In this document: in pieces, positions 21,853 through 54,309 of the stretch
Layout: every line of letters starts with the position of its first letter
Numbering within the stretch: the first letter of the stretch is position 1
Source: a virus
Taxonomy: Duplodnaviria; Heunggongvirae; Uroviricota; Caudoviricetes
Virus record (IMG/VR): IMGVR_UViG_3300028840_006985
DNA: 64,000 nucleotides
Direction: 5' to 3' (one strand)
Translations under genes and position numbers: made by a program
The notes under the pieces: model-generated
Database searches by the model: none
What the model saw: the letters and a program-made list of their open reading frames with translations, nothing else
Told to the model about the DNA's origin: nothing

Positions 21853-22371
21853 ATGAGCTTACAAACGCGGATAATATATCCATTTGTAGAAACATGGCAA
21901 GATTATCCTGATTCGGTTAGTAATGCGGTATTGGTTTATTTTGTTGGCTGTGACAATTATTGTAAAGGTTGTCATAATCATCAATTAATTAATTATTATA
22001 ATAATGATGCCAGGTCTATTTTTCTTGGTAATTTTATTGAAGACTTAAACAATATGTGCACAAGGTGTAATACTGATAAAGTAGTTTTAAGTGGCGGGGA
22101 TCCGTTGTATTGTAAAAATGTGGAATTTGTTAAAAGTTTTTTAGTTCAGAACAATTTATCAGTTACTATTTACACTGGTTATGATTATAGTTATGTAAAA
22201 CGATGTGAAATATCTGGTTTTGATTTTATAAAAGTTGGAAAATTTATTCCAGAAGAAAGTCAACCTCCAGCCAAGAGTGACACATTTCTTAGATTAGCAT
22301 CAAAAAATCAAAAGATTTATAATAAAGACCTCATTGAAGTTACAGACGGCAATGGGGTCTTTTTCTTTTAG
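21853..22371 (+). CDS. nrdG: anaerobic ribonucleotide reductase activating protein (radical SAM)
   Basis: VYFVGCDNYCKGCHN matches the NrdG CxxxCxGCxN cluster (E. coli SGCVHECPGCYN). Size 172 aa. Sits immediately upstream of nrdD. Confidence 0.85.
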   Translation: MSLQTRIIYPFVETWQDYPDSVSNAVLVYFVGCDNYCKGCHNHQLINYYNNDARSIFLGNFIEDLNNMCTRCNTDKVVLSGGDPLYCKNVEFVKSFLVQNNLSVTIYTGYDYSYVKRCEISGFDFIKVGKFIPEESQPPAKSDTFLRLASKNQKIYNKDLIEVTDGNGVFFF

Positions 22372-22381
22372 GAGTCAACAT

Positions 22382-24811
22382 ATGAACACCTCTTCAACTC
22401 TGTCTGAATTTGTTTCTAATCCAACAACAACTAGAACAACTACAAATATTACAAATTCTTTAGTACAGTCTTTAACAAGAAAATACAAATTAGGATATGA
22501 TCTTTGGGATATAGTACAAAAAATAATGGCTATTCATGGGTTATCAAATGATAAGTTTGATTTTGTTGGTAATTTAAACAAGGTTTTGTGTAACAGATTA
22601 AATGATGTGAGCATTGATGACAATTCAAATAAGGTTGAAAAAACGTTTGAGGGATTAATACAGGAAGTTGTATGTCCTATTAAAAAATCAGTTGGTTATG
22701 ATTTTTTATATCAAACAATGCGAAAAATATATGGAAAGGAGGAAGCTAAAAGATTAAGCGGGGAGTTGTATGACTTTTCTTTATCATTAAATGATTCAAC
22801 TAAGATATTAATTCCTTACTGTTATTCTTTTAATGCATCTAATATTATATTAAATGGTAGAAAATTTGGTCAATTATATTCTAATCCACCTAAAAGGATC
22901 GAGTCGTATATAGCATGTTTAAATGAAACTATTCATCAAATGTCTCATCATGTCGCTGGAGCTTTAGCTGTTTCTACAATTTTTATAGATTTTTGTCATA
23001 TTTTATTAATAAAAGAAAAAATACCTTATTATGATATTATAAATAATATGGCGGTTCGTAAGAGAATAGAAAACGCCTTTCAAATGTTTGTACATTCGGT
23101 AAATCATTTATCTAGAAACAGCATTGAATCACCTTTTTCTAATATTTCAATCTTTGATAGACCCAAATTGAGAGCATTAATTGAGGGTATGAAATGGTAT
23201 TTTAATGATTTAAATACGAATAATGTGATTGAATATATTATAGCAATTCAAGATATATTTTTAGATTTTTTTGACAAAGGTGATCCATCTAAAAATGGAT
23301 TGCTTTATAGATTTCCTATTTGTACAGTCAATATTTCAAAGAAAAAAAAGGACAATGAATGGGTAGTCGAGGATGATAAGTTTCTTGAGTCAATAGTAAA
23401 AAGAGATATTTTTAGGTATAACATTTTTTCTAGTGAAGGAATAAAAATTGCTAGTTGTTGTTTTAGGGGAGATCAGCAAGTTGAAACAATGATTAATAGA
23501 GATGGAGTGATTTATGCAGATTTACCAACCTTTAAAGAGTTAATAGACGATATAGATGATTGTAACGATCGTAGAGTATATTATAATGGGTGGAAACATT
23601 TTGATAAGGTTAAAATAGGATATAATGATGATTGGATTGAGATTGTTTGTATGGATGGAAAAAAAATAACTTGTACTAAAGATCATTACTTTCCTTGTTT
23701 AAGTTATGAGGAAGGATTAATTAGATATTATGAATATAATAAAAGGGCAGAAGATTTAACAAGTAATGATTATTTAAAAACTTGTTGTAGTTTTATAAAA
23801 ATTAAAAAAGTTAATAAGGTTCAAAACAATGAAGGAGTTGCTTATTGTATTAATATTAGAAATGGTGAACCGTACTTTACATTGGCTAATGGAATTATAA
23901 CTCATAATTGTCGTCTTATTAACGACACAGAGATGTATGAACTAGGTGGGACAATTAATTCATTCGGTGGATCAGCAATATCAATGGGATCTCATCGTGT
24001 AGTTACAATAAATATTAATAGAATTGCTCTTGAGGCTAAAACTTTAGATGATTATTATGCGATTTTAAAGGAGAGAGTTAGAGATACGGCAAAAATTTTA
24101 AAAGCCCATAAAGAATTAATAAACATGACTACAAAGGAAGGCATTCAGATGTTTATTAAAATGGGTTGGATAGCGATGAGTAGGATGTTTTCAACGTTTG
24201 GAATATTGGGAATAGTTGAAGCAAAGGAAAATTTGGAAAAAAAATTTGGAAATAATGGTGATTATATTGAAGAAACTCTTAAATTAATGAATAAATTAGT
24301 TTTTGAATATTCAAAAAAATATGGTATATATGGCAATATTGAACAAATACCTGGCGAAAGTATGGCTGTTCGATTTGCTGAGGTAGATCGGTTATTATTT
24401 GGAGACGAAGCAATACCACAAAAAATATATTCAAATCAGTTTGTGCCTTTATGGGAAAATTCAACGATTTGGGAAAGGATGGCTGAAGATGGCAAATACA
24501 ATCAATTGATTACTGGGGGCGGAATTGTACATGTGCAGGTTGGAGAGAAAACAACCTCACAGCAGTCGAAAAAAATTATCAAATATGCTATTAAGGTAGG
24601 CAATGAGCATTTTGCTTTAAATGCGATCTATACGGAGTTTCAAGATGGTTCATTTATGCTTGGCAAGTATAAAATTAATCCTCAATCTGGCAGTCCTGCT
24701 AGGGAATATTATACAAGAGTTGTTGGTTTTTTTACTCCTGTTGGTAGTTGGAATAAGGTGAGACGAGAATGGGAGTTTCCACAACGAAAGTTCAACGGAG
24801 TAGACGTATGA
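22382..24811 (+). CDS. nrdD: anaerobic (class III) ribonucleoside-triphosphate reductase, intein-containing
   Basis: Start moved to the ATG at 22382, which follows AGGAG. A C-terminal glycyl-radical-like YYTRVVGFF motif. Adjacent to nrdG. No C-terminal Zn ribbon is seen. Confidence 0.7.
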   Translation: MNTSSTLSEFVSNPTTTRTTTNITNSLVQSLTRKYKLGYDLWDIVQKIMAIHGLSNDKFDFVGNLNKVLCNRLNDVSIDDNSNKVEKTFEGLIQEVVCPIKKSVGYDFLYQTMRKIYGKEEAKRLSGELYDFSLSLNDSTKILIPYCYSFNASNIILNGRKFGQLYSNPPKRIESYIACLNETIHQMSHHVAGALAVSTIFIDFCHILLIKEKIPYYDIINNMAVRKRIENAFQMFVHSVNHLSRNSIESPFSNISIFDRPKLRALIEGMKWYFNDLNTNNVIEYIIAIQDIFLDFFDKGDPSKNGLLYRFPICTVNISKKKKDNEWVVEDDKFLESIVKRDIFRYNIFSSEGIKIASCCFRGDQQVETMINRDGVIYADLPTFKELIDDIDDCNDRRVYYNGWKHFDKVKIGYNDDWIEIVCMDGKKITCTKDHYFPCLSYEEGLIRYYEYNKRAEDLTSNDYLKTCCSFIKIKKVNKVQNNEGVAYCINIRNGEPYFTLANGIITHNCRLINDTEMYELGGTINSFGGSAISMGSHRVVTININRIALEAKTLDDYYAILKERVRDTAKILKAHKELINMTTKEGIQMFIKMGWIAMSRMFSTFGILGIVEAKENLEKKFGNNGDYIEETLKLMNKLVFEYSKKYGIYGNIEQIPGESMAVRFAEVDRLLFGDEAIPQKIYSNQFVPLWENSTIWERMAEDGKYNQLITGGGIVHVQVGEKTTSQQSKKIIKYAIKVGNEHFALNAIYTEFQDGSFMLGKYKINPQSGSPAREYYTRVVGFFTPVGSWNKVRREWEFPQRKFNGVDV
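23459..23908 (+). mobile_element. mini-intein (150 aa, no homing-endonuclease domain) inserted in NrdD
   Basis: Begins CFRGDQQVETMI (block A, Cys1) and ends ...NGIITHN, followed by +1 Cys (CRLINDTEM). Extein junction reads IKIASC|CRLIND. Confidence 0.7.
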
Positions 24812-52311: not shown

Positions 52312-54309
52312 ATGTCAGTAATTATTGACGGCGGTAAATTTACTTCTCAAAGGACTAGAGAAGAGGTTGTTAGAGATTTTACAGAAAGAATAAGTAATCT
52401 TTCAGAAGTCGAATTTAACATTTTAAAAGAGTTTTTAAAAGAAATAACAGGCTCTAACGATAAGAGTTGGGTGGATGAAGAAGGTAATAAAAGAAAATAT
52501 CGTTTAATAGATCTATATCGTTTAATAGAGTATGAGCATGAGGTTGTAGATCCTGAAACATGGATAACGGATCCTTATTATTTTGGAAATACTGGTAACG
52601 AATTATGGCCTAAGTTAAAGGAAGATTTTATAGAACTGTTTTCTGGAAATTATCACGAAGTGATAATGACCGGAGCGATTGGAACAGGGAAAACCTTTTT
52701 TTCAAACGTCTGTCTTTGTAGAACAATTTATGAAATATCTTGCCTAAGAAGTCCACAAAAAAGCCATGGTCAAGCCGACGGGCAGATGATAGCGATTGTA
52801 GTATTTCATGTTACTAAAGAGTTAGCCAAGAAGGTTGTTTTTGATAGCATAGTAAACATGATTAGAAATAGTCCATATTTTATGGAACATTTTCAACCGA
52901 AGATTACTAAGAATGAAATTATTTTTCCCAAAAATATTTGGTTAGCTCCTTTATCGAGCAATACAAAAAGTGCTATTGGACTGAATATTTATTCAGCTCT
53001 TTTTGACGAGTCTAATTTTAAAAAAAGAGAAGGCGGATCGGCTACGGATATTAACGAGGCAAAAGCGTTATATGATTCTGTTTCGCGTCGTATGACGTCA
53101 CGGTTTGGTCGTTCTGGAAAGGTTCCTGGCCTTATTATATTGCCATCTTCTAAGCAAACAGAAGACGATTTTACTCAAACCAGATTGTTGGAATCAAGAA
53201 ATGATAGTACTGTTTTTGCTCGTGACTATTCTCAATGGAGTGTTTTACCTCCAGATCGATTTACAAAAAAGAGATTTAAAGTTTTTGTAGGATCTTCTTA
53301 TATGGGTTCTAGGATTTTAGAATCAGAAGAAAAAATTTTTATTACAGATGAAATGAAAGAGGATGGATGTAAAATTATTGAAGTACCTGAGAATTTTAGA
53401 ATTGATTTCGAAAGAGACATAGATCGATCATTGAGAGAATTTGCAGGAATAGCTACAGTTACAATAAAACCATTTATTACTAATCGAGATAAAATTTACA
53501 ATGCTATAGATAATAGACAACATCCGTTTGAGTTTATAGAGTGGGATAGCATATCGGCTCTTACGATTAAGGATAAATTGTTTCATACAGATGAGGAAAA
53601 TGATATTTCTAGACCTATTTTAAATCCAACTGCTCCACGTTATATTCATTTGGATCCTTCATTAACAGGTGATGCTACCGGGTTTGCCATGGGTCATATT
53701 TCAGAATATATAAATATAGTTAGACGGAATAGAAAAACTGGCGGGCTCGTTTATGAAAATGCTCCAGTTATTATTATTGATATAATGCTTAGAATAGTGC
53801 CTCCCAAAAATGGCGAGGTGGACCAAGGTGCTATTAGAGAATTGATTTATACATTAAGTGAAATTGGATTTCCTATTCGTTTTGTTTCTATGGATTCATA
53901 CCAATCTGCTGGAATTAAACAGAAATTAAAGCAAAAAGGCTATATATCTGATATAATTAGTGTAGATCGTAAAATGGATCCCTATGACATGTTAAAACAA
54001 ACCTTATACGAGGATCGCATAAGGTATTATAATTACAAACCTTTTATTAATGAAATAAAAGATTTGATTGAAGATCATAAAAAAAGAAAGGTGGATCATT
54101 TGCCCAAGCGAAGCAAAGACGTTGCAGACGCTGTTTGTGGAGTTGTTTATGGATTGACAACTAGGATGTCTGGTGAGCCGATGCCTTTACTAAATAGTAT
54201 ATCGGCGAATGGTGAGTATAAAGAAGATCTATCTTGGGTTGTTGGTGAAAGAAATAAAAATAAAAAAGTTGTTAATAATAGTCAACCACTACCATTTTTT
54301 ATAGGTTAG
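52312..54309 (+). CDS. terL: terminase large subunit (ATPase plus nuclease)
   Basis: Walker A VIMTGAIGTGKTF. Size 665 aa. Position at the head of the morphogenesis module. Downstream Asp-rich nuclease-like region. Confidence 0.7.
   Translation: MSVIIDGGKFTSQRTREEVVRDFTERISNLSEVEFNILKEFLKEITGSNDKSWVDEEGNKRKYRLIDLYRLIEYEHEVVDPETWITDPYYFGNTGNELWPKLKEDFIELFSGNYHEVIMTGAIGTGKTFFSNVCLCRTIYEISCLRSPQKSHGQADGQMIAIVVFHVTKELAKKVVFDSIVNMIRNSPYFMEHFQPKITKNEIIFPKNIWLAPLSSNTKSAIGLNIYSALFDESNFKKREGGSATDINEAKALYDSVSRRMTSRFGRSGKVPGLIILPSSKQTEDDFTQTRLLESRNDSTVFARDYSQWSVLPPDRFTKKRFKVFVGSSYMGSRILESEEKIFITDEMKEDGCKIIEVPENFRIDFERDIDRSLREFAGIATVTIKPFITNRDKIYNAIDNRQHPFEFIEWDSISALTIKDKLFHTDEENDISRPILNPTAPRYIHLDPSLTGDATGFAMGHISEYINIVRRNRKTGGLVYENAPVIIIDIMLRIVPPKNGEVDQGAIRELIYTLSEIGFPIRFVSMDSYQSAGIKQKLKQKGYISDIISVDRKMDPYDMLKQTLYEDRIRYYNYKPFINEIKDLIEDHKKRKVDHLPKRSKDVADAVCGVVYGLTTRMSGEPMPLLNSISANGEYKEDLSWVVGERNKNKKVVNNSQPLPFFIG

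Follow-up and report, generated by a model that had tools for sequence, protein, structure and literature searches.

We describe here a 64,000-nucleotide stretch of DNA (the window) from an uncultured tailed phage (IMG/VR record IMGVR_UViG_3300028840_006985), and within it a gene for the anaerobic ribonucleotide reductase NrdD whose reading frame carries an insertion of 150 codons. The open reading frame at 22334..24811 on the plus strand is the sole long frame at the locus, and the probable start of the gene is the ATG at 22382, with an AGGAG sequence 7 nucleotides ahead of it. The gene (22382-24811) encodes a precursor of 809 amino acids, in which the insert corresponds to residues 360-509. 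On the N-terminal side, residues 1-359 (22382..23458, plus strand) align to residues 34-329 of Thermotoga maritima NrdD (tmNrdD), include the conserved PYC cysteine (22811-22831, plus strand) and end in ...IKIASC. The C-terminal portion, residues 510-809 plus the stop codon (23909..24811, plus strand), begins with CRLIND, aligns to the same enzyme and contains the glycyl-radical motif RVVGFF (24716-24733, plus strand). Between these two exteins, positions 23459..23908 on the plus strand translate in frame and free of stops to CFRGDQQVETMI...ANGIITHN. This segment is interpreted as a mini-intein consisting of a HINT splicing domain only, on the evidence of empty sites in homologs, Pfam and Protein Data Bank (PDB) matches, a family alignment and a structural model. 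An original prediction, made from the letters alone, had placed a 150-residue insertion here with a Cys start, a GIITHN end and CRLIND directly after it, and these limits prove to be exact to the base.

Against the unspliced precursor, Pfam NRDD and the NCBIfam NrdD model each match in two pieces. After excision of the insert in silico, Pfam NRDD gives one match (residues 81-653 against profile positions 2-560 of 562) with a score of 234.1 bits in place of 216.8 (cutoff 26.2), and NF006127 likewise gives one match (46-656 against 24-628). Over its whole length the spliced protein can be aligned with T. maritima NrdD (4COI/4U3E, E=1e-67), gap-free across ASCCRL. Alignment of the extein-only protein, which had been suggested as a check, thus restores a contiguous motif against the T. 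maritima enzyme and against both the Pfam and NCBIfam models.

Homologs show the same boundaries from the other side. Among the 120 best NrdD homologs of the window protein, to which all homolog counts below refer, 70 are without the insert (640-720 amino acids) and have a contiguous ASCCRL, and 48 have an insert of 137-358 residues at the identical column. The inserts at this site always have Cys as the first residue, [H/G]N at the end and CR[L/M] next. The closest homolog (P0002, on contig L003) has an NrdD that is 72% identical by protein alignment and an empty site, RYNIFSSEGTKIASC↓CRLVSD, where the arrow marks the junction; the alignment to it shows a precise 150-residue gap at the insert, and its 69 kb contig is phage-like and has a syntenic clamp...NrdG-NrdD order. 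The counter-case named in the original prediction was that of intein-less homologs aligning without a gap across 23459-23908, and what these homologs show is a clean gap with ASCCRL contiguous.

In sequence searches of the PDB the insert matches the TFIIB Mvu mini-intein (E=5e-5) and gp41-1. An AlphaFold2 model of the insert, built on 21 family members, is all-beta and has a mean predicted local distance difference test score (pLDDT) of 94.1 and a predicted template modelling score (pTM) of 0.86. When this model was compared with the PDB by Foldseek, every one of the top 50 matches was either an intein or a related HINT domain (bacterial intein-like or hedgehog), the E values going down to 4e-7 and the template modelling (TM) scores up to 0.76; as modelled, the insert adopts the HINT fold. 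The mini-inteins among these matches include TFIIB Mvu/Mja (5o9i/5o9j), gp41-1 (6qaz), Pho RadA (4e2t) and the hyperthermophile structure 7oec (E 4e-7 to 2e-5, TM 0.62-0.76), which share with the window intein a Cys or Ser at position 1, TxxH, HN and a +1 nucleophile, but differ in being only 12-20% identical to it in sequence and in residing in other host proteins. The model also has an extra beta-hairpin of 13 residues, LSYEEGLIRYYEY (intein residues 81-93, window positions 23699-23737), which is absent from nearly all family members and is the sole region of lower confidence (block mean pLDDT 78).

To define the family we performed an exhaustive phmmer (HMMER) search with the 150-residue intein against 1.84 billion cluster representatives at E<=1e-3. 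This gave 32 proteins, and all 32 are NrdDs, of several subfamilies, with an intein at the [S/M/N/L]C↓C...HN↓CRL site. Since every match lies at one site of NrdD, they form a site-specific intein family, and this specificity is consistent with LAGLIDADG-driven homing into the conserved sequence encoding the finger loop. Within the family alignment the insert has blocks A, B, F and G in common with same-site inteins of 340-358 residues, whose middle portions contain the LAGLIDADG motifs LIGCFLGDGS ... IIDGLxxTDG. Several relatives have a precomputed LAGLIDADG_3 (PF14528) annotation; in the relative P0003 the LAGLIDADG_3 match scores 22.1 bits, under the 22.5 cutoff. The roughly 200-residue LAGLIDADG domain of the full-length relatives falls, by the same alignment, at the junction of Leu106 and Lys107 of the window intein (23774..23779, plus strand). 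The original prediction had also stated that no homing endonuclease is present, and this agrees with every comparison: the insert has no LAGLIDADG or HNH Pfam match, the block of about 200 residues is absent from it in the alignment, and its model contains no extra domain. The window intein would descend from LAGLIDADG-containing inteins that homed into the finger-loop site; with the endonuclease lost it would be unable to home alone, and would persist because NrdD function needs precise splicing. On whether each mini-intein lost its endonuclease independently, comparison of the splicing domains gives an ambiguous picture: a neighbour-joining tree groups several mini-inteins, on long branches, whereas by raw distances the window intein is closest to the full-length inteins P0011, P0006 and P0003.

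The site and the family have a precedent in the nrdD genes of Clostridium phages c-st and D-1873, which are interrupted by a putative intein (PMC3653736). In the c-st NrdD (CST076, AP008983) the intein occupies the same site, ALASC↓CFDGQQ...EPYFTLPNGIITHN↓CRLTSS, compared with IKIASC↓CFRGDQ...EPYFTLANGIITHN↓CRLIND in the window. The two inteins are related by BLASTP in both their C-terminal (E=9e-11, 40% identity) and N-terminal (E=5e-5, 30%) parts and have in common Cys1, Cys+1 and a block F cysteine in the context YC(F/I), although their host NrdDs are just ~30% identical. They differ in that the c-st intein is 330 residues long and has a LAGLIDADG domain (LIGAYLGDGS...YFTDGGNSNR), whereas in the 150-residue window intein this domain is deleted between Leu106 and Lys107. 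The insertion site and the intein family are therefore already known from c-st, and it is the endonuclease-less member in the window that is new. A tblastn search of the phage collection with the intein returned nothing at E<=0.01, although c-st carries a homolog. When all six-frame open reading frames of the window were searched with a family-specific hidden Markov model (HMM), no second intein of the NrdD finger-loop family was detected.

Other phage nrdD genes have been targeted repeatedly by inteins, introns and homing endonucleases. The nrdD of the Jug jumbo gut phages is interrupted by inteins and is a hotspot for inteins and introns (PMC12880540), and Lactococcus phage 949 has intein remnants in its nrdD (PMC3653736). 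In the Jug phages and 949 nrdD is fragmented into several open reading frames by introns and free-standing endonucleases, in contrast to the single frame with one endonuclease-free intein in the window.

The residues at the insertion site are among the most important of the enzyme. The SCCR motif of tmNrdD (residues 328-331), equivalent to MGCR 288-291 in T4 NrdD, is the finger-loop motif with the radical cysteine (PMC4493059); neither of the tmNrdD variants C329A and C330A is active (PMC4493059, Aurelius et al.). The window intein splits this motif as SC↓CR, so that Cys-1 is C329 and Cys+1 is C330 in tmNrdD numbering, and the suggestion in the original prediction that the insertion falls in a catalytic segment was well founded. 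Because Cys+1 carries the thiyl radical and the finger loop is interrupted in the precursor, NrdD is expected to be inactive before splicing and probably works only after it. The use of an indispensable catalytic residue as the +1 nucleophile is a classic intein situation.

Conservation of the splicing residues was counted over 43 unique members of the NrdD finger-loop intein family. Cys1 of block A (23459..23461, plus strand), the nucleophile of the N-S acyl shift, is present in 43/43 and, judged by eye, at the visible junctions of further representatives. Block B contains the TxxH motif as T73-K-D-H76 (23675..23686, plus strand), with Thr or Ser at B:7 in 42/43 and His at B:10 in 42/43, the register being taken from an alignment to gp41-1 (6riz). 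Position B:12 is Phe78 in the window intein and is variable in the family (N, H or F, with W in one member). In block G, Thr148-His149-Asn150 (23900..23908, plus strand) are conserved in 41, 40 and 43 of the 43 respectively, Asn150 being the residue that cyclises. Wild-type gp41-1 resembles the window intein at both B:12 (Phe) and G:5 (Thr) (PMC7664689). The C-extein nucleophile Cys+1 (23909..23911, plus strand) is by NrdD alignment the equivalent of the thiyl-radical cysteine of the finger loop, tmNrdD C330 or T4 C290 (PMC4493059).

Position 4 of block F is occupied by Cys130 (23846..23848, plus strand), whose counterpart in the engineered gp41-1 D107C is residue 107. The F:4 residue is cysteine in 40 of the 43 family members and Asp in the other three; the register rests on the engineered gp41-1 D107C/F65W (6riz) together with these three Asp-bearing members. 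Asp, which in well-studied class 1 inteins coordinates the splicing steps, is the usual residue at F:4, as in the gp41-1 and Mtu RecA inteins, but is not strictly defining, PRP8 inteins having Trp (PMC2807308).

Every residue needed for class 1 splicing is thus present, with Cys as the +1 residue, and we consider it very probable that the insert is a class 1 mini-intein at a known NrdD site. The boundary signature on which the original prediction relied, C...HN↓C, is joined by the same-site family, the HINT fold and the empty sites in relatives, and the agreement goes far past what chance would give. By the class 1 route, splicing would begin with an N-S acyl shift at Cys1, aided by Thr73 and His76 of block B. 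The N-extein would then pass to the thiol of Cys+1 by trans-thioesterification, and cyclisation of Asn150, with His149 assisting, would free the intein. A final S-N shift would re-form the peptide bond, giving an NrdD of 659 amino acids with a contiguous ...IKIASCCRLIND... sequence. In annotation the gene would be described as a single NrdD precursor whose residues 360-509 are an intein, with a mature enzyme of 659 amino acids, and not as an oversized or aberrant NrdD.

A number of observations weigh against this assignment. Alone, the insert matches Pfam Intein_splicing (PF14890) with E=4e-8 and 33.6 bits, which is under the gathering cutoff of 35.8, and the terminal intein models TIGR01445 and TIGR01443 are also below threshold (18.0 vs 24.5 and 15.5 vs 15.6 bits). 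Cys130 stands at F:4 where class 1 inteins usually have Asp, so catalytic details may differ. The -1 residue is a cysteine and there are eight cysteines inside the intein, and splicing could be sensitive to oxidation. The nearest relatives of the mini-intein are ~50% identical, and with no close relative in the databases purifying selection on it is not measurable. That the insert splices, and does so by the class 1 route, is read from conservation of the sequence. With respect to the profile scores, the full-length relatives too reach just 30-35 bits against Pfam Intein_splicing, a sign that it is the entire family that diverges from the Pfam seed.

The sub-threshold scores of the curated profiles are also the only evidence in favour of an ordinary lineage-specific NrdD domain in which the C...HN↓C pattern is coincidental. 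Such a domain would not explain the precise gap in 70 homologs, including the one that is 72% identical, nor the HINT fold and the kinship with LAGLIDADG-containing inteins that occupy this site. The chance that this explanation is correct is negligible, and we regard it as refuted by the homolog gaps and HINT-fold matches.

The cysteine at F:4 raises the question of a class 3-like route, in which Cys130 would attack the N-terminal junction first to give a branched intermediate at block F, followed by transfer to Cys+1, with Cys1 dispensable. Class 3 inteins are marked by the WCT residues Trp B:12, Cys F:4 and Thr G:5, and the F:4 Cys is their first nucleophile (PMC2807308, PMC4031507). Two of these three are present here, Cys F:4 in 40/43 and Thr G:5 in 41/43 of the family (PMC2807308, PMC4031507); the window triplet is F78 / C130 / T148. 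Phe at B:12 might be tolerated in such a route, as the Trp-to-Phe mutant of MP-Be DnaB still gives about half spliced product, and Tori et al. record three WCT inteins that retain Ser1 or Cys1 (PMC2807308). Class 3 inteins such as MP-Be DnaB and Msm/Mch DnaBi1 also resemble the window intein in phage association and HINT fold, and 6bs8 and 6rix are among the Foldseek matches of the model (E ~1e-4). The definition of class 3 was reportedly extended to inteins with Cys1 or Ser1 by Tori and Perler in 2011.

The window intein also differs from class 3 in several respects. Class 3 inteins have lost the N-terminal nucleophile, whereas Cys1 is invariant in the family, and since Cys1 is not required by the extein motif it is kept for the function of the intein itself. 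As in class 1, B:7 remains Thr or Ser; B:12 varies, with W in one member, and +1 is occupied by Cys in place of the typical Ser or Thr. The three members with Asp at F:4 show that Cys is not obligatory there. The host is NrdD, in contrast to the helicase and terminase P-loops in which class 3 inteins occur. Moreover, grafting WCT onto the class 1 intein gp41-1 gave no class 3 splicing (PMC7664689). A class 3-like mechanism is accordingly very unlikely, and assignment to class 3 was rejected on the invariant Cys1 and the absence of Trp at B:12. The combination of Cys F:4 and Thr G:5 with an invariant Cys1 may be noted as an "xCT" pattern, class-3-like within an otherwise class 1 intein, and it is of some minor mechanistic interest that the family conserves an F:4 Cys while keeping Cys1. 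Bacterial intein-like (BIL) domains are without a +1 nucleophile and mostly perform cleavage; here Cys+1 is in place and belongs to the conserved extein motif, and for that reason this identity was rejected.

The preference for class 1 leaves room for a more speculative role of the thiols. Cys-1, Cys1, Cys130 and Cys+1 could form a cluster that acts as a redox gate, with a disulfide blocking splicing under oxidation, or, as a variant, the intein could be a class 1/class 3 hybrid with a covalent role for Cys F:4. The closest precedent among redox-trapped inteins is M. smegmatis DnaBi1, in which a disulfide links Cys48 and Cys118, the latter at F:4 (PMC6195587). A gate of this kind would explain the near-invariant F:4 Cys in a family of inteins devoted to an anaerobic enzyme, and would mean that the oxygen-sensitive glycyl-radical enzyme matures solely in a reduced or anoxic infected cell. 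We offer this as an idea that is unlikely, though not to be neglected.

It could also be asked whether the element is a decayed, splicing-dead relic, which would leave NrdD either pseudogene-like and inactive or functional with an extra domain kept. The homing endonuclease is gone, which is the stage at which degeneration of an intein is expected to begin, the element is without close relatives, and it has the unusual hairpin with lower model confidence. On the other hand all catalytic residues are intact, the frame is open and the model folds confidently. The insert splits the essential SCCR, so that if unspliced it would very probably inactivate the enzyme, while the exteins, the glycyl-radical motif and the adjacent NrdG activase are intact. 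Loss of splicing is on these grounds very unlikely. As a class 1 mini-intein the element is a natural 150-residue, endonuclease-free example that has both Cys1 and Cys+1, and it enlarges a family whose homing target is the most critical loop of class III ribonucleotide reductase (RNR); small natural mini-inteins are possible parts for protein engineering. It leaves current understanding unchanged, phage NrdD inteins at the finger-loop site having been known from publications for over ten years.

The host protein has the features of a class III (anaerobic) NrdD: the Pfam NRDD match, the glycyl-radical motif, the finger-loop Cys and an adjacent NrdG. The NrdG-type radical-SAM activase is encoded directly upstream of NrdD (21853..22371, plus strand; Pfam Fer4_12, E=5e-10, and Radical_SAM), and the order NrdG-NrdD is also found on contig L003. 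Against the NCBIfam equivalog NF006127 the spliced protein scores 433.6 bits, which does not reach the cutoff of 545. The host enzyme is a divergent phage NrdD. The 809-residue precursor has a 100% identical entry in the public protein collection (P0001), found on three contigs of which the largest is ~176 kb.

The divergence extends to the C-terminal zinc site, which the original prediction rightly described as lacking its cysteines. Alignment to T. maritima NrdD places the corresponding ribbon segment at NrdD residues 752-771 (24635-24694, plus strand), where the four tmNrdD Zn ligands, CxxxHx6CxxC, are all replaced, by F, S, N and S. When the homologs were examined for the Zn-ribbon pattern, CxxCx14CxxC or the CxxxHx6CxxC of tmNrdD, 13/120 proved to be Zn-less. 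These 13 retain the PYC cysteine and the glycyl-radical motif TR[V/I]VGF, most often as TRVVGFF; SCCR is contiguous in the ten that are intein-free and is restored by splicing in the other three, and NrdG lies beside NrdD in both members whose context was seen. Loss of the Zn ligands is a feature of this clade and not decay, and by their conserved motifs the group looks like a functional Zn-free NrdD clade. The Zn site of NrdD is thought necessary for activation by NrdG, which makes a Zn-free clade unexpected. The three intein-bearing Zn-less members (P0001, P0070 and P0087) all have mini-inteins, of 150, 154 and 162 residues, and none has a full-length intein.

Outside the nrdD locus the window is a tailed-phage genome segment that encodes a DnaB-like helicase, UvsX-like recombinase, sliding clamp, terminase, portal, prohead protease and T4-type major capsid protein, the last of which is ~32% identical to its top match among sequenced phages. 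The content of G+C is 26.9% in the intein, 30.7% in the exteins and 32.8% in the window. Differences of this size are too small to be read as a sign of foreign origin.

No intein was detected in the large terminase open reading frame (52312-54309, 665 amino acids) by the family-specific intein HMM. This frame has weak PHROG terminase matches, one of which spans residues 50-619 against 364 profile positions, and such a span may mean an insertion or strong divergence.

In several related NrdDs (P0010, P0028, P0059, P0122, P0125, P0131, P0085, P0137 and P0024) other sites are occupied, by as many as four or more inteins. These sites are FVH↓SVN, SNE↓SPF and IG↓SHRV, with inteins that end in GN↓S, and PY↓C and GA↓CA, with inteins that end in HN↓C. 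The inteins ending in GN↓S have a Cys at an F:4-like position (VWCPTT, VYCVEV), while the PY↓C type has Asp (VYDITT). The combination of Cys1 with Cys F:4 may therefore be commoner among phage RNR inteins than the textbook account suggests. Finally, the homologs P0013 and P0014 have an N-terminal Fer4_12 (NrdG-like) region of ~260-275 residues fused to NrdD, together with C-terminal extensions and a 146-residue mini-intein at the same site as in the window, and look like activase-reductase fusions.

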